Positions 2,770 to 64,000 of a stretch of DNA of 64,000 nucleotides are shown piece by piece. The DNA comes from Mobula hypostoma (lineage: Eukaryota). The notes beneath the pieces were generated by a model. It was given only the letters and a program-made list of their open reading frames with translations. It searched no databases and had not been told where the DNA came from. The position numbers were made by a program, and so were the translations under genes. The stretch lies in assembly GCF_963921235.1 (NCBI RefSeq), contig NC_086107.1:102922001-102986000 (forward strand), written 5' to 3'. The first letter of the stretch is position 1; the number at the start of each line of letters is the position of its first letter.

Positions 2770-3610
2770 AAATTTTAGTATCAGAGTACATATATGTACA
2801 AAGACAACCCTGAGATTCATTTTCCTCTGGACAGGCTCAGCAAACCTGTAGACTAGTAACTATAACAGGATCATGTAGAGCACAGAAGACATCAAACTGT
2901 GCAAGTGCAAATATAAATAAATAGCAATAAATAACGAGAGCGTGAAATAACAAGATAAAGAGTCCTTAAAGTGAGATCGTTGGTTGTGGGAACATCTCAA
3001 TAGGTGAGTGTAGTTACACCCTTTTGTTCAGGTGCCTGACGGTTGAGGGGTAGTAACTGGTCTTGAACCTGCTGGCATGAATCCTGAGGCTCTTGTACCT
3101 TCTACCTGATGGCAGCGGTGAGAACAGAGCACGGCCTGGGTGGTGAGGATCTCTGATGATGGATGCTGTTTTCCTGCGACAGTGTTTCATGTAGATGTGC
3201 TCAGTGGTTGGGAGGGCTTTACCCGGGCCGAATCCACTACCTTTTGTAGGATCACACACAAAATGATGGAGGCACTCAGCAGGGCAGGCAGCATCTACGG
3301 AAAAAAGTAACTGTCCTTGAACCTGGTGGTACGAGTCCTGAGACACATGTACCTTCTACCTGGCGGCAGCAGGGAGAAGAGAGAAGGGCTCGTGTACTTC
3401 TTTCCACAGCTGCTGCCCGGCTTGCTGATACCCCAGCATTTTGTGTGAGTTGCTCGGATTTCCAGCATCTGTAGATTTTCTCTTGTTTTGACCTTTCGTA
3501 GCATTTTCTCTTCAAAGGCATTTGTGTCTCCATACCAGACCGTGATGCAGCCAGAAAAATAGACAACTACAGACGTTTGTCAAAGTTTTTGAGGTCATGC
3601 CGTTTGTCGT
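2770..3610 (-). mobile_element. Rex1/Babar LINE 3' fragment (hosts an inverted-pLTR insertion at 3250-3490)
   Basis: ORF 3014-3346(-): KTASIIRDPHHPGRALFSPLPSGRRYKSLRIHASRFKTSYYP. Confidence 0.75.
3250..3490. mobile_element. Inverted-pLTR mini-insertion with a captured LINE segment
   Basis: Opposed pLTR arms flanked by accttttgtag (3239-3249) and acctttcgtag (3491-3501). Confidence 0.65.
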
Positions 3611-22144: not shown

Positions 22145-23250
22145 TAGAGGGAAGGGGCAGAGGCCCTATAAAGAAGGTGGGGTAAGGTGGGAAGGAGAAG
22201 GCTGGTAGGTTCCAGGTGAAAAACCAGTAAGGGGAAAGATAAAGGGGTGAGGGAGGGGAGGCAGGGAGGTGATAGGCAGGAAAGGTGAAGAAAGAATAGG
22301 GAAAAACACAATGGGTAGCAGAAGGAGGCGGAACCATGAGGGAGGTGATAGGCAGCTGGGGGAGGGGTCAGAGTGAAATAGTGATAGGGGAAGGGAGGGG
22401 GAGGGAATTACCGGAAGTTGGAGAATTCTATGTTCATACCAAGGGGCTGGAGACTACCTAGACGGTATATGAGGTGTTGCTCCTCCAACCTGAGTTTAGC
22501 CTCATCATGGCAGTAGAGGAGGCCATGTATGGACATATCTGAATGGGAGTGGGAAGCGGAGTTGAAGTGGGTGGCTACTGGGAGGTCCTGTCTGTTTTGG
22601 CGGACGGAGCGGAGGTGCTTGACGAAGTGGTTCCCCAGTCTGCGTCGGGTTTTACCGATGTAGAGGAGGCCGCACCGGGAGCACCGGATGCAATAGATGA
22701 CCCCAACTGACTCACAAGTGAAGTGTTGCCTCACCTGGAAGGACTGTTTGGGACCCTGAATGGTGGCAAGAGAGGAGGTGTAGGGACAAGTGTAGCACTT
22801 GCGCTTACAGAGATAAGTGCTGGGTGGGAAATCAGTGGGGAGGGACGTGTGGACCAGGGAGTCGCGGAGGTTAGGATCCCTGTGGAAAGCGGAGAGAGGT
22901 GGAGAGGGAAAGATGTGCTTAGTGGTGGGGTCCTGTTGAAGGTGGCGGAAGTTGCGGGGGATAATGTGCTGGATCCGGAGGCTGGTGGGGTGGTAGCTAA
23001 AGACAAGGGGAACTCTGTCCCTGTTGTGGTGGCAGGAGGATGGGGTGAGAGCCGAAGTGCGGGAAATGGAGGAGATGTGGCTGAGGGCATCATTGATGAC
23101 GGCAGAAGGGAACCCATGATCCTTAAAGAAAGAGGACATTTGAGATGTCCTGGAATGGAGAACCTCATCCTGGGAGCAGATGCAGCGGAGACGGAGGAAC
23201 TGGGAATAGGGAATGGCATTTTTGCATGTGGCGGGGTGGGAAGAGGTATA
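22107..23250 (-). mobile_element. PLE fragment (Neptune-like): RT thumb, Cys linker, GIY-YIG open for ~280 aa, hammerhead at 22107-22144
   Basis: ORF 22408-23331: SHPATCKNAIPYSQFLRLRCICS...CKRKCYTCPY...VIYCIRCSRCGLLYIGKTRRRL...PVATHFNSASHSHSDM. Confidence 0.92.
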
Positions 23251-26200
23251 ACAACAGATTGCCACGTGGGTGGCCAAAGTATGGATATGTAGAGACCACA
23301 AGAGAAATGTATGTAGAGGATTGAGAGTCATTGAATGATTTATTGTATATAATTTTATTTTTGAATAAAGTATATTTTGAAATTTAAAAAAAATTTCTGG
23401 GGAAGAAGCCTTCAGCCATTAACCAGTTCAATTGGTACATGAATCCTACCTATGACCAATGACTGCACTGTCCCTCGCTGTGGCAAAGCAAGCCAAGGGT
23501 CCGAAAGCAGTTGAACTTCTTAAGGTAACTAGGGGTGGACAATAAACGACTCCCATGTCTCCCAAGAAGGAATGAACGATATGAAAGAGGGGTTGATCAG
23601 AGTCAGAATCCGGTTTAACATCATCGGCTTATGTTGTGAAGGGTCTCGGCCCGAAACGTTGACTGTACTCTTTTCCATAGATGCTGCCTGGCCTGCTGAG
23701 CTCCTCCAGCACGTTGTGTGTGTTGCTCGGATTTCCAGCATCTGCAGATTTTCTCCTGTTTGTTGTGAAGTTTGTTAACTTCACAGCAACAGTACAATAC
23801 ATGAAAAGAAACTGTCACACTAAGTATATTAAATAGTTAAGTTAAAATACTGTAAAAAAAACACAGAAATACAAAAAAGAGTATTGAGGTAGTGTTCACA
23901 GGTTCAATGTCCATTTAGGAATCGGATGGCAGAGGGGAAGAAGCTGTTCCTGAATCACTCAGTGTGTGCCTTCAGGCTTCTGTACCTCCTTCCTGACATG
24001 TACAGGGGTTATAAAATTTCAAGCTTTAAATTTTGGTTGATTTCTGGATTCTTGGAGCTTATTAAAAGTTGAAGGGAAATTGTTCAGAATTAGAACCAGA
24101 CTTACATACCATGTAATGTGTTGCTTTTGCCGCAGCCGTTGAACACCACAGCACAAAAGCAGGCCCTTCGGCCCATATACTGCGTGCCTGAACAACTAAT
24201 CTGCCTAGTCCCATAGACCCGCACTCGGACTGTTGCCCTCCATACCCCTCCAATCCGTGTACCTATCCAAACTTCTCTTAAACATTGAAATCGAACCCGG
24301 ATCCATTTGTAGCGCAGTGCAAAGGCACAAAACCACATAAAAATAAATACTGAGGTAGCGTTCATGGGCTGAAGAACCATTGAGGAAGCTGACGGTGGGG
24401 AAGAGGAAGCTGTTCCTAGCATTGAGGCTGAGTCCTATAATCTCCTCTCCAATGGTTGTAATGAGAAGAGGGCATGTCCTGGATGGTGATGGTCCTGAAT
24501 GATGGATTTAGTGGTTAATAAAAATTCAAGATCATATTAACTTAATAAAGTTTACTGCAGTCTTCCACGTCACTGTGGGGGGCGTTCTGATGTCCTCCCA
24601 CATATAAAGAGGCTCTGGTAGATTAATTGAATACTGTAAATTACCTCTTAGTGTGCACCAGTGGCAAAAGAAATCAAATGTTCAAAGTAAGTATAAATTA
24701 TATAACCTTGAGATTCATCTCCTTGCAGGGAGCCACAAAATAAGAAACTCAAAAGAACCCATTTAAAAAAAAGACTAGCAAACAGCCAATGTGCAGAGAG
24801 AGAGAGAGGAAAAAAAACACAAATTGTGCAAACAGTAAAGCAAGTGCACAACATTTCGAATGAAAGTGAGCCCATAGACAGGAAGCCCGGAGCAGACCCA
24901 CGGCCTCAGCTTCAGTTCATCACACAGCGGGTCAAGTTGCTGGAAATCTCGCTGACGCAAAGCCTGGAGTAGATGGAGCAGGTCCGCAGCCTCAGCGTCA
25001 GAGTCGCGGGGAGCGGAGTGAACGTCGCAGGGCAGTGGGCAGAACTGGCCCTCCCCTCCCCTCTGGTCCCGACACCCGGCCTTTTCAATCCATCCAGCCC
25101 GGCATTCGAATTGTCTAAACACTGGGTCATGGTCATCCCTCGCACCAGGACTTGGGCTCTGTCGCGAAGATACGATAAAATCGAATTGGTGAGCGTGTGT
25201 GCAGGAGAAATAAGACAGCAGGGAAATGGCACTGATGGAATTGCTCTGCTGAGAGATAGCATGGAATAAAAGGGCTGAATGTCCGTCTTTCCAATCATAG
25301 TAAGCAAGCAATGGCTGCCTTGCATATCTGAAAATCAAATGGGTTTGTCAGATGTTACATTCTGAAAGCTCATGTTGGATTTTTAAAGCAAAGAGGATCC
25401 AGATGTAGAATTTGCAAGGCCAACTTTTAATGCCAGCACAAAGCTTTATAGGTGGAAAAGAAATATTTTCTAAATAGACATTTATTTTTTGGTCAGAACA
25501 TAAAAGTCCAAAGTCGGGCAGATGGATTACTTCCTAGAATGAGTACTGGAGGGAAATCTATTGGGATAATTTACAATTGGATCCTGCATTCTGAGTGACG
25601 GAGGAGGGAGAGATTGGAAGCAAAACAGTGCAGATGTAGGAAGTTCAGAGCCAAATCAGAAAGCGGTAAAGATGCTCAGCAGGTCAAGCAGCATCTGTGG
25701 AGGAGTGATATAGAGCCAAGGTCTCAGATTAAGAAACCTCTATCAGAGAACTGAAAACGAGAGAAGACGGAAGTATTTTAAATTGAGGAGAGGAGGAAGT
25801 GTCCGGGATATGGAGCAGAGCAGCATGAATGTCACCTTAGCAACCCCGGTTGGATCTAATCACAGAAAGCAAAGGTAAATATACATTCTAACGCTCCACA
25901 ATCTCCATCTCTTCCTCGACCCCTGCCAACAATCCACAATCATTTTCTAATCCTGTCTGACTCAGAACATGCTATTCTTTCAGGAGGTAAATCAGCGCGG
26001 AGCATGTATCTGACCCTTAATATAACTGCCCGTTGCAGAGCCGAGCTGTAAAAATAATGCTGATTGCAGAATGCAAGATCGGGAGACAAATATTTATTTG
26101 TGCGTTTATCAGCACAAGGTACATTATAACTCAAGGCAATGAATATTCCTGCAGCTCATCGTTAAATGACCCAGAGCACTGCAGTTCTTAAACATCATAC

Positions 26201-45095: not shown

Positions 45096-45165
45096 CATGC
45101 CATCCACTTTCAGTTCAGTGGCAAAGCTGGGATCGACTCAATGGTTCTTTTGCTACTTGTACATA

Positions 45166-45792
45166 CACTCACTGGCCACTTTATTAGGTACACCAGCTCG
45201 TCGATGCAAATGTCGAATCAGTCAACCATGTGGCAGCAACGCAATGCATAAAAGAATGCTGACACGGTCAAGAAGTTCAGTTGTTGTTCATACCAAACAT
45301 CAAAATGGGATCCAAGTGATTTTGACCGTGGAATGATTATTGGTGCCAGATGGGGTGGTTTGAGTATCTTGGAAACTGCTCTGGGAATTTCACGCATTAC
45401 AGTTTCTAGAATTTAAGAGAATGGCCTGAAAATAAGAAAAATATCCAGTAGGTGAAAATGCCTTGTTAATGAGAGAGGTCATGGGAGAATGGCCAGACAA
45501 TTTCAAGCTGACAGGAAGGTGACAGTAACTCAAATAAGCAAATGCTACAGCAGTGGTGTGCGGAAGAGCATCTCTGAACACACAACCTGTCGAACCTTGG
45601 AGTGGACAGTCTACAGCAGCAGAAGTCCATGGCCAAGTCCAAGGTCCACTGTATTAGGTACAAAAGGTACTTAGTAAAGTGACCATTGAGTATATCTCAC
45701 AATGCATCCACGGTACAAGTATGGAAGGAAAGAGTGCATAGAATGTGAATAGTTGCTACTTAGGAAGTACTTAATAAAGTGGCCACTAAGTG
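45166..45792 (+). mobile_element. Tc1/mariner non-autonomous element with a transposase N-terminal relic
   Basis: TA|cactcactggccactttattaggtac ... gtacttaataaagtggccactaagtg|TA; DFDRGMIIGARWGGLSILETA and ADRKVTVTQI...SISEHTTCRTL. Confidence 0.85.
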
Positions 45793-45976
45793 TAAGTCTG
45801 GCTTACTGGAACTCACATATCTCAAGAGGTGGAACCCAGTAGAATGTGTTAATCTGATCCTTGTATGTGTGGAGATCTGTGGGACTGTTGTTTGGTAACT
45901 GCATGCAGTGATATGACTGCAGCCAGAAACTTGGTGTGCAATGTCAGAAGCCCAAACTTACATCCTATTACGTTAA

Positions 45977-46206
45977 CAACAGGAATTCTGCAGATGCTGG
46001 AAATTCAAGCAACACACATCAAAGTTGCTGGTGAACGCAACAGGCCAGGCAGCATATCTAGGAAGAGGTACAGTCGACGTTTCAGGCCGAGACCCTTCGC
46101 AGTTAGTCCTGACGAAGGGTCTCGGCCTGAAACGTCGACTGTACCTCTTCCTAGAGATGCTGCCTGGCCTGCTGCGTTCACCAGCAACTTTGATGTGTGT
46201 TGCTTG
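45977..46206. mobile_element. 230-bp ORF-less palindromic pLTR insertion with a perfect 15-bp TSD
   Basis: TSD atcctattacgttaa at 45962-45976 and 46207-46221. 94-bp stem 46006-46099 / 46113-46206 with 2 mismatches. Confidence 0.92.
46104..46141 (+). ncRNA. Minimal type-I hammerhead ribozyme motif
   Basis: TAGTC-CTGACGA-AGGGTCTCGGCCT-GAAAC-GTC-GACTG; predicted cleavage after 46136. Confidence 0.78.
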
Positions 46207-46375
46207 ATCCTATTACGTTAAATATGTTGTATTTCTGCATAGTGAGACTGAACACTGGAAAAGAGGTGTGTGGAAAAATCGTGGCCCTCAAGAAAACTAA
46301 TATTCAGCAATAGGCAACACACATCAAAGTTGCTGGTGAACGCAGCAGGCCAGGCAGCATCTCTAGGAAGAGGCG

Positions 46376-46413
46376 CAGTCGACATTTCAGGCCGACACCC
46401 TTCGTCAGGACTA
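46376..46413 (-). ncRNA. Minimal hammerhead ribozyme motif
   Basis: Minus strand TAGTC-CTGACGA-AGGGTGTCGGCCT-GAAAT-GTC-GACTG. Confidence 0.7.
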
Positions 46414-47573
46414 ACTGAAGGAAGAGTTAGTAAGAGATTTGAAAGTGGGAGGGGGAGGGGGAGATCCAAAGTGATAGGAGAAGACAGGAGGGGGAGGGAT
46501 GGAGCCAAGAGCTGGACAGGTGATTGGCAAAAGGGATATGAGAGGATCATGGGACAGGAGGTCCGGGGAGAAAGACAAGTGGGGGGGGGGGAACCAGAGG
46601 ATGGGCAAGGGGTATATTCAGAGGGACAGAGGGAGAAAAAGGAGAGTGAGAGAAAGAATGTGTGTATAAAAATAAATAACGGATGGGGTACGAGGGGGAG
46701 GTGGGGCATTAGCGGAAGTTAGAGAAGTCGATGTTCATGCCATCAGGTTGGAGGCTACCCAGACGGAATATAAGGTGTAGTTCCTCCAACCTGAGTGTGG
46801 CTTCATCTTTACAGTAGAGGAGGCCATGGATAGACATGTCAGAATGGGAATGGGATGTGGAATTAAAATGTGTGGCCACTGGGAGATCCTGCTTTCTCTG
46901 GCAAAGCGGTCTCCCAGTCTGCGTCGGGTCTCGCTGATATATAAAAGGCCACATCGGGAGCACTGGATGCAGTATGTCACCCCAGCCGACTCACAGGTGA
47001 AGTGTCGCCTCACCTGGAAGGACTGTTTGGGGCCCTGAATGGTAGTAAGGGAGGAAGTGTAAAGGCATGTGTAGCACTTGTTCCGCTTACACGGATAAGT
47101 GCCAGGAGGGAGATCAGTGGGGAGGGATGGTGGGGACGAATGGACAAGGGAGTTGCATAGGGAGCGATCCCTGCGGAATGCAGGGGGGGGGAGGGAAAGA
47201 TGTACTTAGTGGCGGGATCCCGTTGGAGGTGGCGGAAGTTACGGAGAATAATATGTTGGACCCCGAGGCTGGTGGGGTGGTAGGTGAGGACCGGGGAACC
47301 CTATTCCTAGCGGGGTGGCAGGAGGATGGAGTGAGAGCAGATGTGCGTGAAATGGGGGAGATGCATTTGAGAGCAGAGTTGATGGTGGAGGAAGGGAAGC
47401 CCCCTTTCTTTAAAAAAGGAGGACATCTCCCTCGTCCTGGAATGAAAAGCCTCATCCTGAGAGCAGGTGCGGCGGAGATGGAGGAATTGCGAGAAGGGGA
47501 TGGCATTTTTGCAAGAGACAGGGTGAGAAGAGGAATAGTTCACTTTCTAACTCTTACTAACTCTTCCTTCAGT

Positions 47574-47611
47574 TAGTCCTGACGAAGGGTCTCGGCCTGA
47601 AACATCGACTG
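47574..47611 (+). ncRNA. Minimal hammerhead ribozyme motif (AUC site)
   Basis: TAGTC-CTGACGA-AGGGTCTCGGCCT-GAAAC-ATC-GACTG. Confidence 0.65.
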
Positions 47612-48349
47612 TACCTTTTCCTGGAGATGCTGCCTGGCCTGCTGCGTTCACCAGCAACTTTGATGTGTGTTGCCTGAATTTCCAGCATCTGCAGAATTCC
47701 TGTTGTTTGCATTCAGCAATAGAGCTGCATTGGGTTAAAGCATCCTGTGTGTGTAACACACCACATTCAGAACTTTAAGGCCCTAACCTCCATATTTGCT
47801 TCACTTTCTAAACAAAAACACATGCCTATCTGCTGTAAATCCTGGTGCTGTTGTCTGTTGCTCTGAAGAGATCTGCTTTCAGCACTCTGTACTAACCAAA
47901 AACAATGAAGTACTTTGTGAAACCTTATGCAACCTGTGGCATAAAATAACAACTTATTAGGTTTTGTAGCGTTATTTGTCTTGGCACGATGTAGATGTGA
48001 TTTTGCAAAATTGTATTAGAGAGTTGAAGGCACTTTTGAAGCAATTTGGTGTCAGCTTACCCCTCCGGGTTTCTGTGACATCACAGTGGCCTGCAAGACA
48101 ATTTAGAACTTCAGTCGTTTTGTAACTCTGTCTTAAAGGTTACATGGAGTTCACAGCATTGACGCGGTGGTTGAAGGGTGGTTAACGCCCGAGTCAAGAC
48201 ACCTTGAACAGGCTGGGGCAGCGCCATTTAGGAGAGGGATGACTGAAAGTCTCAAGATTGGCTCGGACAGAGGTGAAAATGTCTCCACTTGCGGGGAATT
48301 GGGAACAAGCAGCACAAATTCTGTTGCTGATTATTTAAATTTGGCCTGT

Positions 48350-54732: not shown

Positions 54733-54952
54733 CACGCAAGAGAAAATCTGTAGACGCTTGAAATTCGAACAACACTCACAAAATGCTGGAGGAACTCAGC
54801 AGACCAGGCAGCATCCCAGCCCTACTGAAGGGTCTCTACCCAAGACTCCGACTCTTTATTCATCTCCATAGATGCTGCCTGACCTGTTGAGTTCCACCCG
54901 CATTTTGCAGGTGTTACTCTGGACTTCCAGCGTCTGCAGAATCTCTCGTGTT
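54733..54952. mobile_element. Old inverted-pLTR mini-insertion
   Basis: Opposed pLTR arms with a decayed hammerhead near 54820. Confidence 0.65.
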
Positions 54953-55335
54953 AACGCTGGAAATATTCAGGTCAGGCGGCACCTGTGGGGAGGAGGTTCA
55001 CTGACAGACATATATTTTTTAAGTCTCTCCGAGTACTTTTAGCCTATCTTGTTTCTGATTTACTTATGAGAATGACAAAGAAATTTAATTATGTGGCTTG
55101 AATGGAGAAGCCAGTGTCACTCTGCTTGGGAAAAGAAGACGGAGGGTGATGAGTTGGAGATCTTCCAAACCATGAAGTGTTTAGATTACTGACAGAGAGA
55201 TCTTCTTCCCCGAGAGTTGATCATCAACCAGACGATATAGAATGAGGTCAACTGCCAGAGTTGTTGCTGATTGCTAAACTCCCTGCTCTGAGGAGAGGGA
55301 TGAGCTGGATTGATCAGCCAAACCCTGAATTCTAC

Positions 55336-55420: not shown

Positions 55421-55909
55421 TTTGTCATCGTGGAGAGGAGAGTGAGCTGGCAGGAGTAGAGGATTCTGGGTACGGTGAGGATGGAGCACCACGGGAGGGG
55501 TGTGGGACGGGTGGCAGAGAAGGAGTGCCGGGAGCAGGTGATGGCATGGGTGCAGATACACCCAGCCCCAGGACACCAGGCAAGGCCATTTGATTCCAAA
55601 TAATTGGATTAGTGATCATTACAGAATGTCTCTCTGGTACTTCCCTCTCTCTTCCCCTTTTCCCAACCACAATTCCCCTCTCCCTGCTCCCTTCCCAATC
55701 TCAGTCCATAACAGAGACCCATATCATCACTCACACGTCATGAAATTTGCTTTTCTTTTGCGACAGCAGTACAGTGCAATACATAAAATTACTACAGCAC
55801 TGGGCAAAAGTCTTAGGTAACCTAGCTATATATATGTGCCTAAGACTGTACATTCTGTCAAAGTTGCTGGTAAAAGCAGCAGGCCAGGCAGCATCTCTAG
55901 GAAGAGGTA

Positions 55910-55947
55910 CAGTTGACGTTTCGGGCCGAGACCCTTCATCAGGACTA
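55910..55947 (-). ncRNA. Minimal hammerhead ribozyme motif
   Basis: Minus strand TAGTC-CTGATGA-AGGGTCTCGGCCC-GAAAC-GTC-AACTG (one helix-I mismatch). Confidence 0.7.
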
Positions 55948-56245
55948 ACTGAAGGAAGAGCTAGTAAGAGATTTGAAAGTGGGAGGCGGAGGGGGAGATC
56001 CAAAATGATAGGAGAAGACTGGAGAGGGAGGGATGGAGCCAAGAACTGGACAGGTGATTGGCAAAAGGGATACGAGAGGATCATGGGATAGGAGGCCCAG
56101 GGAGAAGGAAAAGGGGGAGGGGGGGAAAACCCAGAGGATGGGCAAGGGGTATAGTCAGAGGAACAGAGGGAGAAAAAGGAGAGAGAGATAAAGAATGTGT
56201 GTATATAAATAAATAACGGATGGGGTACGAGGTGGAGGTGGGGTA

Positions 56246-57824
56246 TTAGCGGAAGTTAGAGAAGTCAGCGTTCATGCCATCAGGTTGGAGGCCACCCAGA
56301 CGGAATATAAGGTGTTGTTCCTCCAACTTGAGTGTGGCTTCATCTTTACAGTAGAGGAGGCCGTGGATAGACATATCAGAATGGGAATGGGATGTGGAAT
56401 TAAAATGTGTGGCCACTGGGAGATTCTGCTTTCTCTAGCGGACAGAGCGTAGGTGTTCAGCAAAACGATCTCCCAGTCTGCATCGGGTCTCGCTAATATA
56501 TAGGAGGCCATATCGGGAGCACCGGACGCAGTATATCACCCCAGCCGACTCACAGGTGAAGTGTTGCCTCACCTGGAAGGACTGACTGGGGCCCTAAATG
56601 GTGGTAAGGGAGGAAGTGTAAGGGCATGTGTAGCACTTGTTCGGCTTACAAGGATAACTGCCAGGAGGGAGATCAGTGGGGAGGGATGGTGGGGATGAAT
56701 GGACAAGGGAGTCGCGTAGGGAGCGATCCCAGCAGAAAGCCAGGGGGAGGGAAAAATGTGCTTAGTGGTGGGATCCCGTTGGAGGTGGCGGAAGTTACGG
56801 AGAATAATATGTTGGACCCTGAGGCTGGTGGGGTGGTAGGTGAGGACCAGGGGAACCCTATTCCTAGTGGGGTGACGGGAAGATGGAGTGAGATCAGATG
56901 TACGTGAAATGGGGGAGATGCGTTTGAGAGCAGAGTTAATGGTGGAGGAAGGGAAGCCCCTTTCTTTAAAAAAGGAGAACATCTCCCTTGTCCTGGAATG
57001 AAAAGCCTCATCCTGAGAGCAGATGTGGCGGAGATGGAGGAATTGCGAGAAGGGGATGGCATTTTTGCAAGAGACAGGGTAAGAAGGGGAATAGTCCAGA
57101 TAGCTGTGAAAGTCTGTAGGCTTATAGTAGACATCAGTAGATAAGCTGTCTTCAGAGATAGAGACAGAAAGATCTAGAAAGGGGAGGGAGGTGTCGGAAA
57201 TGGACCAGGTAAACTTGAGGGCAGGATGATAGTTGGAGGCAAAGTTAATGAAGTCAACGAGCTCAGTATGCGTGCAGGAAGAAGTGCCATTGCAGTCGTC
57301 GATGTAGCGAAGGAAAAGTGGGGGACAGATACCAGTATAGGTTTGGAACATAGATTGTTCCACAAAGCCAACAAAAAGGCAGGCATAGCTCGGACCCATG
57401 TGGGTGCCCATAGCTACACCTTTAGTTTGGAGGAAGTGGGAGGAGCCAAAGGAGAAATTATTAAGAGTAGGGACTAATTCCGCTAGACAGAGCAGAGTGG
57501 TGGTAGAGGGGAACTGATTAGGTCTGGAATCCAAAAAGAAGCGGAGAGCTTCTGATGGGGGATGGAAGTATATAGGGACTGGACATCCATGGTGAAAATA
57601 AAGTGGTGGGGGCCAGGGAACTTAAAATCATCGAAAAGTTTAAGAGCGTGGGAAGTGTTACGAACATAGGTAGGAAGGGATTGAACAAGGGGGGATAAAA
57701 CTGTGTCGAGGTATGCAGAAATGAGTTCGGTGGGGCAGGAGCAAGCTGAGACAATAGGTCTGCCAGGACAGGCAGGTTTGTGGATCTTGGGTAGGAGGTA
57801 GAAACGGGAAGTGCGAGGTGCGGG
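56246..57824 (-). pseudogene. Frameshifted PLE reverse transcriptase / GIY-YIG endonuclease
   Basis: FYLLPKIHK..GRPIVS; TMDVQSLYTSIPH; QTKGVAMGTHMGPSYACLFVG; FLRYIDDC; FLDL..TDVYYKPTD. Confidence 0.93.
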
Positions 57825-58018
57825 CATCCTCTGGGTTTTTCCCCCCCTCCCCCTTTTCCTTCTCCCTGGGCCTCCTGTCCCATGATCCTCTCATATCCCC
57901 TTTGTCAATCACCTGTCCAGCTCTTGGCTCCATCCCTCCCCCTCCTGTCTTCTCCTATCATTTTGGATCTCCCTCTCCCCCTCCCACTTTCAAATCTCTT
58001 ACTAGCTCTTCTTTCAGT

Positions 58019-58056
58019 TAGTCCTGACGAAGGGTCTCGGCCCGAAACGTCGACTG
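58019..58056 (+). ncRNA. Minimal type-I hammerhead ribozyme motif, best-preserved copy
   Basis: TAGTC-CTGACGA-A-GGGT(CTCG)GCCC-GAAAC-GTC-GACTG; helix I AGTC/GACT; predicted cleavage after 58051. Confidence 0.82.
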
Positions 58057-60326
58057 TACCTCTTCCTAGAGATGCTATCTGGCCTGCTGCATTCACCAGC
58101 AACTTTGATGTGTGTTGCTTGAATTTCCAGCAGCTGCAGAATTCCTCGTGTTTACTGTACATTCTGTGCCTCAGACTTGGACGTACAGTTATCTTTCATC
58201 CACTGATATGGTGAAAGGTTGAGGCCCCAGGCCAGCTTAATGGAGAACACAGTTCATCAGTCCAATTGTGAAACATTAGCAAAGCCAATCCAGATAACAA
58301 TTCCTTATCCACCATGTTAATAATTTAGTAATGCAGTTCCTTTAAGAGTTAATTAAAACTCACAGTTCAATCTTTTCAAGTCATGCTGGCACTTGCAGTC
58401 ATCACAGGCAGGAGCATGTAGGAAAAAGAATCGTTTATTAAAAAATAAATGAAAAGGGAACAATATCGTTCAATAATTAAAACATTCCAACAGTCTTCAA
58501 CTATAAATGAAGGTGGGGACTCTTCACTCAAAATTGCTGATCATGCAATCAATCATTCATGTGTTGCTCAGAATCTTTTAACTTTATCGTGGCAGGATGA
58601 ACTAGTTACAAGGAGCAGCAATCAGAGAGTGACAATTTCTCACATCCCCAAAATACCAGGATTAGAAACAAATTCTAAAGGAAACTTCCCTGTTTAAGTA
58701 ACTTCTGTTCTGTATCTTACTCTGGATCACATTTCCTTCAAATGAGCAAAGTATAATTTACTTTCTTGAAATTAAAACAAAACAGAGAAAGAGGAACAAG
58801 ATTAAATGCAGACTTGTAGCTTCCAATAATTTACCAAATTTGAAGAGTTGTCAGGGTGAGGTTCTATACTGAACTATGACCACTACTTTCTGGAAATAAC
58901 CTAAATCCTTTTTCTTCCAAAGAGACCCATCAGCAAATTTGCCCTAATGGCACTTAATTCTGCACCGAACCAGGAAATGAGATGTTGAGGTCATTCACCA
59001 GTATGGCATCAGGAAGAGGAACAAGCTTGGAGCCAAAGTAAAGCACAGATTTAAAAACCCTCTCTTCCTCTAGTTCTCTGCATAGGAAGCAAGACACTCT
59101 GTGGTAGAGTGAGCATTATATAGGGCGAGGGATTACTGGAGGAAGAGATGCTTTAAATCTCAAGGATGTTACTCATCAGTATGTTTTTACTTGACTTGAC
59201 TAAGAATTCTTAATTAATAAGCCATGTCATGACCAAATGATTTGCCCCAGTAAAGCATTAAACCAGGGAAATACAACTAATACTCCACCAGCTGTTTCAG
59301 AAACTAAAATACTTTGCTTAGGTGTTTTAAACTGGAGAGGCACAGTACACACTGGATTATCTTCATCTTATGGAGTAGTGGTTCTCTCGATGTTAAACAT
59401 CACATTTCAAGTCTGATACTTTCCTTCAATATTGGTCAAAAAGGTGGCAATGTTGTCCACAGATGTTAAGACTGCACTTTTCACCCAGAACAATGCTGAC
59501 ACACTCGCATAGTGCAAAGCTCACGTGAGCGAGGGTCGTTGCATCCAAAGCTCATCCCTCTGGTAACTCCTCCATAACAGCACCTAGCTGCAGCTGGAAT
59601 ATCCCAAACATTTTTGCACAGACTGGCTTGCCAGGGAATGTATTGGGGAGAAGAATGAAGCTTAGACATCTACCTTTGGAATGCTACTTGACCATGTGCT
59701 GAATGAAACTAAATTTCAAGGGAGTGTCGTCCTGTCTCAGCACACACATTTCCATCAATTATTAAAGCAGAAGGTGGCTACCCAGAGTTTTATTCTCATT
59801 GGTGGTGCACCTCAACCAAACTTTGACTCAACTTTGGACTTTGTACAGGCCAAACAGCCTGGTGACCCAATGGACAATGGATATTTTTGCAACTGCATGA
59901 GTAGAAATCTTATGGCAAGAGAAACACAAAAAGTATTTGCAGAATGTGGTCAGCTAACTGTTTGGAAGGGGGTTCCTGAAAGTAAATGTTTGGCGGGCTG
60001 CCTAGCAGACAGTTCTATCACACCACAAGTCACAGCTCAAGGGTAATTCATGAATAGAGATCAATCCAAATATGAAATCCAAGATAAAAATTAAACACCC
60101 AACCATCTGTCCAGAGTGAAATAATAGGGAGAGGAGGAGGAAGCAGTCATCTGCTTCTGGTACATAAATGTGAAACAGAGAGTAAATTATTAACAGCTAC
60201 TGATTCAAAATCTCCAGTTACTAATCTCGCATCTTATTCAAGATTGCAAAAGTGTTACCCAACTGGCGATTGTAGCTTGTTCCTGCTCAGGAAGAGACCT
60301 CAAAGTTCCATTGACTGAAATACATT

Positions 60327-63300
60327 TGTAGGTTTTTGCAAATAAAACAAAGTGAGGTGTTTTATGCTTAATAAAAACCCATAACACATTTTATTGAACT
60401 CCAAAACCCAAACACAAAAGTGTGCTAAAAATCTTCATGTAATAACGTCATCATGTCAAACCAGCCTCTTAAATTGAAACCCCAACTCAATATCGGTGGT
60501 TATGAATTACCATAAGACATAAGAGCAGAATTAGGCCATTCAGCCCATCCAGTCTGCTCTGCCATTCCATCATGGCTGATTCCGGATCCCACTCAAACCC
60601 ATACACCTGCCTTCTCGCCATATCCTTTGATGCCCTGACTGATCAGGAAACGATCAACTTCAGCCTTAAATATACACACGGACTTGGCCTACACCACAGT
60701 CTGTGGCAGAGCATTCCACAGATTCACTACTCTCTGGCTAAAAATATTCCTCCTTACCTCTGTTCTGAAGGGTCGCCCCTCAATTTTGAGGCTGTGCCCT
60801 CTAGTTCTGGATCCCCCCACCACAGGAAACATCCTCTCCACATCCACCCTATCTAGACCTTTCAACATTTGGTATGTTTCAATGAGATGCCCCTCCATTC
60901 TTCTAAATTTCAGTGAGTACAGGCCCAAAGCTGCCAAATGCTCCTCATATGTTAACCCCTTAATTCCCATAATCGTCCTCATGAACCTCCTCTGGACTCT
61001 CTCCTGTATGTACATTTCTCCCAATTATGTTACCCTACACAGGCCTTCCACAGAGTTCACTAAAACCGCACTGAGCCTGGCTCGGGTCCTGTGTTCCATG
61101 GATGGAGGAACTGCAGTTGCCTCTGGCTTGTCCAGAGGTGTGTTGATGTGCTCATGTCATGATAGCAGCGGAATACTCCAAATCTTGGTGGGTCAATTTA
61201 AGGCAGTCTACTGAAATACGTTCAGGTTTACTCCCGTCATCTATGATGGAAGTCTTTTCTCCCCCAGACCAAAACGCAGAACGGGCCATCGTAAGGGGGC
61301 TGAAGGGGATGTTGGTGTGCATCATGGCGGGTGAAAACAAACGAGACAGAACATAGGTCAACAGCAGCCAAAAGTGCCGTATCCCATGATGGAAGGTAGG
61401 AATAGTTGAAAAGGAATTTACTGTGGAGGGTGAAACACCGCTGAGAGGCTGACCAGGAGGTCAATGCATTGGAAATTAAATCACCTGGCACTCTGTATAC
61501 GGGCAGCTGTTACAACACAGCCACAGACGACTGCAGGTCTTCATTTGGAGCTGATCCGAGCCCCAGCAGGATCCATGGGAGACGATCACGCCAACACTCA
61601 TCAGTCATAGGAGCCCTCGGAGCAGCCTTTAAGGAGTGGTGAGACCACTCGCAGAGGCCATCGGACTGCAGGTGATATGTCGTGGTGGGATCTAGCTGAT
61701 GTTCTTGGCCATCGCAGCCCAGAAGTCTGAAATGAACTGGGGACCGCAGTCAGAGAAAATATCAGATGGCATGCAAAACCGAGCAACCCAGGTGCTGATG
61801 AACGCCTGAGTCACATCTGCGTTGCTAAAAGGACAACCCTTGGCCACCTGGTAGTATTGTACACCATGGTAAAGTGTGTGAAACTGCTGGGGGTGGGGGA
61901 ACATTGACACAGTCAAATCGTTGCTCAAGGACCTCAAAAGATGCCAACTGTGCCTGAACATGATGGTTAATTTTTTACCTGCTGGCACTCCACATAGGCT
62001 GCAGTTCAATCACACATGCCCTTTTGGAGGCCGTGCCAAATGAATTTTAGGGCAACCTGTTTTTGTGAGGCCTTTCAGCCCAGATGCGAGAGGCCACGTA
62101 CGGAGTTGAAAACAGACCGTTTCCAGGTTGTGGACATGATGAGGTGAGAGCGACTGGTTGAGACATCATATAGGAGAGAAACCCCAGCTTCCCTGAACTT
62201 AATGTCAGCCAACCGCAGGCCCGTAACTACGGTTTGGCAAGCCTGGACTTCTGGGTCAGTAGCTTGGTTGCCTGCATAGTCAATCCCTGCATGTATGGCC
62301 TCCATGGCTGGCTGTGAGAGGTAATCGGCCACAGATTATTTTTCCCTTTGATATATTGTATATCCGTTGTGAACTAGGTTATGTAGGCCAGGTGGCGGTG
62401 CTGCTATGAAGACCAAAGTTCTGATAATTTGGCTATTGCGTGCACGAGAGGTCTGTGTCCAACAAACGCTGCAAAATGGCCACTCTAGAGGAAAATGAAA
62501 GTGGCGGACAGCCAGATAGGGATCGAGAAGCTCACAATCAAACGTGCTGTACTTCCTTTTTGGGGGGTACAGAGCAGCCGGCTGAAGGCGGCGAGGGGCT
62601 GCCACGCACCTCTGACCAACTGTTTGTGCACAGAACCCACAGCACAGTCTGAGGCATCAGTAGTAATGGCTACGGATGTGTTGGGGAGTGGGAGCGCCAG
62701 TAGGGTCCTGTTAGAAAGAGCTTGTTTAGTATCACCGAATGCCTTGGTCGTATCCACTGATCGGTCAAGCACTTCATTAGAGGCATTGCCTTTAAGTGCA
62801 CTCTACAGTGGAAGCATAAGTTGAGCAGCTTGCAGAATGAAGCTTTAGTAGAAATTTATCACACCCAAAAATTCCTGTAGTTTTTTTTTGTAGTGAGGGG
62901 CGGTGGACATCCATAATAGCAGCTAATTTTGCTGAGAGGGGTTTCACACCTTCTGCAGAGATGCAATGGCCGAGAAAGTCAATGGTTGATAATCAAACTG
63001 GCACTTAAGAGTTAATAATCAACCCGTGTTGGCTTAAGTGCCCGAGAAGTCTGAGATGTGTTTGGATTTGGATGCACTGGCGACAAGTATGTTATCCGGG
63101 TAAACAAAAATAAAATCTAAGTCTTTTTAATACAGAATCCATCAGCTATTAGAAAGTCAGTGCTGCCTTTTTCAGTCCAAATGACATGCACAAAAACTCA
63201 AAAGGGCCAAATGGGGTTATCACAGCTGTTTTGGGAATATCCTCCAAGCACACATGGTAGCCCCTAATTAGATCGACTTTAGAAAAAATTAACTTTTTGG

Positions 63301-64000
63301 CTAAACGTGCTGAAAAGTCTTGTATGTGAGGGACCAGGCAATGATCAGAGGTGGTGGCCTTGTTAAGGCATCAGTAATCATATGGGCAGCAACCACCATC
63401 GGACCTAGGGACTGTATGGAGCAGTGGAGCCAAGGGGCTATTCGACTGGCATACAATGCTGAGTCTTTCCACGATGGCAAACTCAGCCTTCTCAGTTGCC
63501 AGCTTTGCTGGGTCCAATCTACGCACATGGGCATGGACCGGCGGGCCAATTGTGGGAATGTGGCGCTCAACCCCATGTTTTGTGATTGTAGTGGAGAATG
63601 TGGGCTTGGTGAGGTTTGGGAATTCACCCAGCAGCTGAGTAAACTCACATGCGGTGGTGCACGTGCTTGACAGCGTCGTTGTGAGGAACTTGCTGGGTGG
63701 GGGAGCAGGGTAACAACCCTGACCTTGACACCCACAGCCGACAGTTCTTAAGATCGAATCCTTGGGCACAGAGGACACCTTCAACAAGCAGAGTTCTAGC
63801 CACTTCAGCCAAGACAAAATTCCATGTGTAATGTCACCCTCTCAAGCAGCATCACCCATCGTGTCCAGCAAGGCTGAATCTTGTTTCCATTGGCAGCACA
63901 CTCAGTTGAGTACTTGTGTCACTCAGGAAATGTCACCCTGAAAGGGTAGCTGTAATAAACAATGGGCGGCCCTGGCAGCTGGAACCCACAGTGTTCACAG
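60327..64000 (-). mobile_element. Decayed Gypsy/Ty3 LTR retrotransposon (3' LTR 60327-61039; PR-RT-RH-IN relics run off the window)
   Basis: LTR termini TGTAGG/CCTACA; LQPPYDGPF; SDCGPQF; TTDASDCAVG..WQPLAAFSR; FVYPDNILV (decayed YLDD); FLSDTST (decayed protease motif). Confidence 0.92.
60509..61004 (-). mobile_element. CR1 3' end inserted in the Gypsy LTR
   Basis: ORF 60689-61024 ERVQRRFMR..GLTYEEHLAALGLYSL..TRGHSLKI. Confidence 0.9.

Follow-up and report, generated by a model that had tools for sequence, protein, structure and literature searches.

A 230-bp head-to-head pLTR insertion, very probably a one-off product of Penelope-like element integration

Two pLTRs of a Penelope-like element (PLE), joined head to head within one TSD, make up a 230-bp hairpin insertion at positions 45977–46206 of the 64-kb window (the whole stretch of DNA analysed, 64,000 nucleotides). 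This insertion is an ordinary minimal product of PLE integration. It is very probably a one-off PLE insertion, and its layout suggests that it was probably formed by two target-primed cDNAs, a route that we read from the product. Inverted pLTRs, a tail on one side only, a TSD and palindromes at the junction have all been published before as PLE traits.

Results

Structure of the insertion

Reading of the sequence and self-comparison place the 230 bp between two exact copies of a 15-mer. A direct-repeat search identified these copies as the TSD, with the left one at 45962–45976 (plus strand, 73% A+T) and the right one at 46207–46221 (plus strand); the rough probability of such a repeat by chance is 1e-7. 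The composition of the insertion was determined by arm alignment, using an element numbering in which the C of CUGA is +1 and the preceding base is 0. Both arms correspond to the 3′ end (pLTR) of a PLE of putative Neptune/Nematis type, and they are arranged head to head. The leftmost segment (45977–46005, minus strand) is the 29-nt PLE tail, element positions +99..+127, as the tail is defined in the relevant parts of PMC8557442 and PMC11167929; it is present on the left arm only. The left arm follows at 46006–46099 (minus strand, pLTR +5..+98), with private substitutions at +48 and +64. The 13-nt spacer at 46100–46112 (plus strand) was shown by arm alignment and junction comparison to be element −8..+4 in sense, and hence a part of the right arm, whose tailless pLTR (+5..+98) occupies 46113–46206 on the plus strand. 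With its spacer, the right arm therefore covers element −8..+98 (plus strand); the left arm with its tail covers +5..+127 (minus strand).

The two arms form an inverted repeat of 94 bp in which 2 positions are mismatched. The inverted repeat reaches 95 nt if the first base of the TSD is counted, as that base pairs too. Within the spacer, three extra pairs around a bulged A leave a loop of 6 nt. The predicted fold of the insertion has an energy of −197.6 kcal/mol (z −28.5), and none of 200 shuffled sequences folded equally well. A sequence-only reading of this DNA had described the stem with its 2 mismatches, the 13-nt loop and a perfect 15-bp TSD, and arm comparison, folding and repeat search recovered all of them. 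The same reading had called the 230 bp palindromic and ORF-less. The first term fits the 94-bp arms, which do pair, but not the insertion as a whole: the 29-nt tail has no partner, the inverted repeat is offset by 29 nt from the left end, and the unit is thus not a symmetric palindrome. The second term is correct in that the insertion lacks RT and EN sequence, but an ATG-started frame of 75 codons spans 45994–46221, with no sign of use.

Parent element and neighbouring insertions

BLAST comparison of the insertion with the window gave about 40 local matches. The closest ones (91–96%) are the ends of two neighbours, at 46314–47710 and 55859–58153, and these neighbours continue into ORF remnants. 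Both neighbours are young insertions of the same subfamily, built as head-to-head pairs with their 3′ ends outward and one TSD each. The first has a tailless arm of about 1227 nt with a GIY-YIG remnant and a tailed arm of 170 nt, enclosed by a 12-bp TSD (46302–46313/47711–47722). In the second, a tailless arm of about 1968 nt carries an RT remnant and is opposed to a tailed arm of 329 nt, with a TSD of 13–14 bp. The RT and the C-terminal GIY-YIG domain that characterize an EN+ PLE were found through the ORF remnants of these neighbours, and the 230-bp insertion itself displays the usual marks of an EN+ PLE insertion, i.e. an inverted 5′-truncated copy, a one-sided tail (29 nt) and a TSD of variable length around the unit.

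Out of 1331 candidate proteins, 82 matched the RT remnant (56572–57621) at E ≤ 0.001. RVT_1 was present in most of these and GIY-YIG in several, and the best match was a Chiloscyllium shark protein (67% identity), a hint that the host is a cartilaginous fish. An Atlas search with this remnant retrieved the same kind of cluster as the protein search, and a PDB sequence search with it gave nothing useful. The EN remnant of an older copy at 22 kb aligned (46%) to the C-terminus of one RT/GIY-YIG protein; the Pfam GIY-YIG match on this copy was weak (E 0.003, below the cut-off). A CX2-5CxxC linker was seen in the translations at 22408–23418 (the 22 kb copy) and 46735–47205 (the first young neighbour), and at both places the cysteines of the CCHH configuration of PLE EN lie between the GIY and YIG equivalents. 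This linker is described as a mark of Neptune/Nematis that is absent in Penelope/Poseidon (PMC8557442, in part). On the linker motif alone the present family is classified as putatively Neptune/Nematis-type, and a Penelope/Poseidon-type label was dropped.

The domains found in the ORF scan were of retroelement type only (RVT_1, zf-RVT, RT_RNaseH, GIY-YIG, and ALKBH8_N in a LINE-like frame). No host gene domain was detected in the window among 233 ORFs of at least 55 aa in mostly non-repeated sequence, a scan by which short exons would be missed. The arm patterns had no match in metagenome contigs or genome contigs and one short match in a viral contig, and the junction pattern had none in metagenome contigs; DNA of this animal is not expected in these collections, and their blanks carry no weight. 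Other elements are present in the window. To the left of the 230-bp insertion, a high-copy sequence at 45161–45797 carries 31-nt inverted repeats (87%) that are 575 nt apart, presumably the relic of a non-autonomous Tc1-type DNA transposon, and at 62488–63841 (minus strand) there is a remnant whose RT-RNase H domain is of the LTR-retrotransposon type. The gap between the 230-bp insertion and its nearest young neighbour measures 80 bp from TSD end to TSD start (46222–46301), and the three near-identical arms around it could pair in alternative ways.

Age of the insertion

Over 80 shared bases, the arms of the 230-bp insertion differ at 2 positions and those of the two neighbours at 7 and 6, with 3–9 differences between insertions. 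Sequencing runs of two species labels contain 40–59% of the locus words. A 429-base contig over 45570–45998 showed no difference in run X2, possibly the source sample, and 4 differences in run X5, which bears the second label. Beyond the left junction this contig covers another 22 letters, fewer than the 31 that our rule for bridging demands, and these letters are tail and not right flank. Since the left flank is joined to the tail in contigs of both labels, the insertion probably predates the split of the two species labels. No empty-site joint occurs among the 15 joints listed, beyond which there are 707 more, and none of the contigs listed covers the central junction, the right junction or the right flank. 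Run X9, from a third organism, and run X17, presumed to be RNA, have no contig on the unique flank, and 46232–46295 is bare in all four runs, gaps that carry no weight either way. The insertion is therefore recent, as initially proposed, only relative to its neighbours: it is the least mutated of the three, but its left junction is also found under the second species label.

Head-to-head layout across the window

We aligned 27 arms and scored 26 of them by hand, the arm at 22 kb being dropped as it ends near +35; the alignment did not include a 15.6 kb remnant or two ORF-end fragments lacking a pLTR. The arm ends are bimodal (n = 26), 11 lying near +85..+100 and 15 near +124..+132. Exactly one tail is present in 7 of 8 head-to-head pairs (p = 0.03). 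The exception is the pair at 54735–54955 (54.7 kb), which has a tail on both arms and where no TSD was found.

Pairs made of pLTRs only number five or six in 64 kb. Apart from the 230-bp insertion, older short palindromes are located at 17.8, 32.0, 40.4 and 54.7 kb, with an interrupted one at 3.3 kb, and weak degenerate TSD candidates (7–14 nt, at most 2 mismatches) occur at all of these others except the one at 54.7 kb. The five uninterrupted short palindromes, including the 230-bp insertion, have five different junctions, those at 40 kb and 54 kb being without a fold-back match. The junction of the 230-bp insertion occurs once in the 64-kb window, even with 3 mismatches allowed. Among the 15 joints listed from contigs of the sequencing runs (707 others lie beyond this listing), 10 are element-internal, and all of these are different. 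Two further arrangements were observed: an old short palindrome at 3250–3490 is split by an 84-bp piece of another repeat (3306–3389), and a single-arm insertion at 23635–23762 has its start near +6, and its 10-bp direct repeat extends into the first bases of the arm.

The hammerhead ribozyme

The minimal PLE hammerhead, as presented in PMC4209133, consists of the core, a short helix I and a palindrome in place of helix III, and requires a dimer; motif pairs on opposite strands, 100–700 bp apart, are also mentioned there. A motif scan located such a minimal type I hammerhead at 46104–46141 on the plus strand (motif type as in PMC4209133), with a predicted cut after 46136. The features of this type (CUGANGA, GAAA, NUH, helices I and II and a palindrome replacing helix III) are represented in the right arm by CUGACGA, helix II, GAAA, the palindromic ACGU, a GUC triplet and helix I. 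It is the minimal, dimer-type form, with a helix II region of 13 nt. The left arm begins at +5; CUGA is absent from it and from the minus transcript of the insertion. Motif scan and alignment hence agree with the previous description of a complete hammerhead in the plus arm and of a minus arm without CUGA. A flexible hammerhead scan of the 64-kb window returned 8 motif matches, 6 of them in the same PLE family; Rfam at gathering score returned none in the whole window.

In a plus transcript the antisense arm precedes the sense arm, and pairing is predicted for all hammerhead bases except 46103–46108 and 46112. The stem is thus predicted to sequester the ribozyme, and as a structure prediction this part of the sequence-only reading is upheld. 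Cleavage of the hairpin by the hammerhead appears unlikely in this model, because the hammerhead bases would be paired and the insertion offers no partner on the same strand.

Arm stop points near the hammerhead

Eighteen arms begin within −60..+50, and 11 of the 18 begin within −10..+12 (p = 2e-4 per arm; counted by event, 7/12, p = 0.03), p values that are optimistic since this interval was picked after the data had been seen. For the five uninterrupted short palindromes, 9 out of 10 arms begin between −8 and +11. The element-internal joints among those listed enter the right arm at 46102–46115 in 8 of 10 cases, a count limited by the start of the reference at 46100 and by the 707 joints beyond this listing.

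The sequence upstream of CUGA is a pyrimidine run with YAG at −4..−2 in 9 of the 11 copies checked, and an initiator-like YYANWYY precedes CUGA in 7 of the 11, one copy being read one base off register. We take YAG and YYANWYY before CUGA to be consensus motifs of a splice acceptor and of an initiator, respectively. At 47551–47578 (plus strand), at 46409–46436 (minus strand) and in older copies, TACTAAC, a pyrimidine run and YAG lie directly before helix I; we assume this TACTAAC to be branch-point-like and the overlapping motif at −5..+1 to be initiator-like. For Penelope of Drosophila virilis, the end of an intron is placed at the 5′ end of helix I (PMC4209133, in part). A transcript start or a splice acceptor before helix I could explain the arm stops near −8..+11. 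Conservation before CUGA proves nothing in this respect, as helix I depends on these bases too.

Discussion

Formation of the insertion

The layout of the 230-bp insertion matches that of its longer neighbours. The initial suggestions that it is a single retrotransposition product and an extreme truncation of a PLE are both supported by this match.

In vitro, the protein of an anole element cuts and extends both strands of its target and begins reverse transcription at two internal sites, one on each side of the tail; it works mainly from uncleaved RNA and does not need hammerhead cleavage (PMC11167929, in part). In the route that we consider probable for the 230-bp insertion, the element protein would cut both target strands and start two cDNAs inside one 15-bp TSD. 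Synthesis primed from the top strand would begin at the +127 start and run to about +5; primed from the bottom strand, it would begin at the +98 start and run to about −8. The 3′ ends of the two cDNAs would then anneal, either through TCAG/CTGA minus one base or through a 1-nt match, and repair would fill in the remainder. The element has TCAG at −9..−6 and CTGA at +1..+4, a natural 4-nt inverted match, and the junction 46099/46100 lies on this match but lacks one base of a perfect 4-nt microhomology join. The two outer ends of the insertion coincide with the two canonical end points; a new event with two starts would give this pattern, and recopying of a hairpin would not be expected to. The spacer is sense-oriented on the top strand and so must have arisen together with the tailless arm. 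Since each arm contains sequence from upstream of the predicted cut (+28/+29), the template must have been uncleaved RNA. The missing junction base and the 54.7 kb pair with its two tails count against the two-cDNA route. The product would be a dead end, its sole complete hammerhead being of dimer type, predicted to be paired, and without a partner on the same strand in the insertion.

Two other schemes were rejected. Hammerhead cleavage was discarded as the cause of truncation because both arms run past the cut site. Snap-back of a single target-primed cDNA was discarded because a start at +98 gives no tail and a start at +127 on the top strand reverses the loop.

It is unlikely, though it too would amount to a one-off PLE insertion, that the hairpin arose by self-priming, with an antisense template that folds back at the small palindrome beside CUGA and is extended into a hairpin, which the endonuclease would then trim and insert. 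Arkhipova et al. 2013 (PMC3846280, in part) report palindromes at inverted junctions and propose such priming from an antisense template. The present junction folds back almost perfectly, leaving a 6-nt loop, and an antisense template longer than +127 would agree with the orientation of the loop. However, a separate trimming step would be required to set the ends on two known RT start sites, and the same layout is seen in insertions with very unequal arms (1227 vs 170, 1968 vs 329) and at the 40 kb and 54 kb junctions, which have no fold-back match. Direct extension of both target strands has moreover been shown in vitro (PMC11167929, in part).

We give distinctly less credit to a non-autonomous hairpin element, in which the fold-back unit would be transcribed and recopied by PLE protein with its junction intact, giving rise to a family of its own. 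The variant in which some pLTR-only fold-backs, this junction included, are recopied by PLE protein from the single-stranded tail, as a 'retro-MITE', seems equally doubtful. The duplex predicted for the minus-strand transcript does not include the tail, from which RT would set out, and pLTRs can act in trans (PMC3846280, in part). A form three letters shorter at 46099 has a depth of 124 in run X2, 2067 in run X5 and 41 in run X9, compared with a single-copy depth of about 5–6 in X2 and X5; this form might represent a recurrent related junction or, equally, an ordinary copy with a small deletion. The same junction could also recur independently, because it lies on the natural 4-nt inverted match. 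Against a hairpin family stand the single occurrence of the junction in the window at up to 3 mismatches and the differences among junctions in all five uninterrupted short palindromes. Furthermore, the right end is placed at the canonical second start site, without older flank or TSD, and the 94-bp duplex is predicted to cover the template. The proposal of a retrozyme-like, self-propagating hairpin contained in the sequence-only reading finds no support, given the single occurrence of the junction in the window, the differing junctions of the other short palindromes, the head-to-head units and the presence of only one complete hammerhead.

Long palindromes are unstable, and a longer inverted PLE insertion could have lost its centre later on. 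The missing base at the junction does indicate some processing, and long head-to-head copies adjoin. A central deletion nevertheless leaves the clustering of 9 of 10 arm starts between −8 and +11 unexplained, and a single-arm copy at 23.6 kb with its own TSD also starts at +6, so that we hold this origin to be very improbable. Finally, a MITE-like DNA transposon or an assembly artefact is hardly conceivable: size and hairpin shape are MITE-like and no contig among those listed spans the whole element, but the left inverted repeat is offset by 29 nt from the end, the sequence comes from the 3′ end of a retroelement, the TSD varies in length (15 bp here against 12 and 13–14 bp in the sister insertions), and the left junction is present in contigs of two runs. 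The MITE category was also rejected by definition (terminal inverted repeats from a DNA transposon, PMC8969392), the repeat being 29 nt inside and derived from a retroelement.

Significance of minimal pairs

Taken singly, this locus is of little importance. Minimal pairs as a class are clean records of PLE integration, which is poorly understood: the one-sided tail, the orientation of the loop and the stop points constrain the mechanism, and they favour two opposite-strand cDNAs on uncleaved RNA. If transcribed, a stem of 94 bp would be a suitable substrate for ADAR or Dicer, but the ORF scan detected no host gene domain in the window. At five or six per 64 kb, minimal pairs might yield hairpin RNA in quantity wherever transcripts include them. 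Should the doubtful 'retro-MITE' scheme prove true, a pure hairpin retroelement would seed dsRNA stems of about 95 bp that silence the parent element.

Comparison with known systems

Our literature search, whose scope left most subscription papers (e.g. Arkhipova 2006) outside, found no paper devoted to a pLTR-only pair. The insertion resembles non-LTR retrozymes (PMC7761336; bioRxiv 10.64898/2026.07.22.740005; both in part) in being short, non-coding and pLTR-derived and in having a type I hammerhead. As characterized there, a retrozyme is a tandem of head-to-tail units that has two or more complete hammerheads on one strand and yields circular RNA, whereas the units here are head to head, with one complete hammerhead. 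The retrozyme category was rejected by definition, because the units are opposed and only one motif is complete, while the criterion given in the 2026 preprint is two consecutive complete motifs on one strand. The core, the short helix I, the palindromic positions and the dimer requirement are those of metazoan PLE hammerheads as covered in PMC4209133. In contrast to the hammerhead pairs mentioned there, one motif lacks CUGA in the present case, and the 94-bp stem is predicted to trap the other.

The Poseidon element PAc of Anolis carolinensis (Frangieh et al. 2024, PMC11167929, in part) likewise has a pLTR hammerhead and an AT-rich target, with two RT starts about 100–130 nt downstream that bracket the tail and with uncleaved RNA being used. 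The in vitro data were obtained with a Poseidon element, whereas the element described here has a Neptune/Nematis linker. An inverted 5′-truncated copy at the 5′ end and a tail of 30–40 nt, often at one end only, are among the general traits of PLEs listed in PMC8557442. The closest parallels are the EN+ PLE pairs Pen2a_Av and Pen2_Av of Adineta vaga, for which the portion of PMC3846280 concerned describes inverted pLTRs inside TSDs of 8–10 bp with a tail of 30–40 nt on one pLTR and a palindrome or overlap where the two copies meet, as here. The 230-bp insertion differs from them in that both copies are reduced to the pLTR, with no ORF left, and in its TSD of 15 bp; it shares with them the arrangement of head-to-head, 5′-truncated copies within one TSD.
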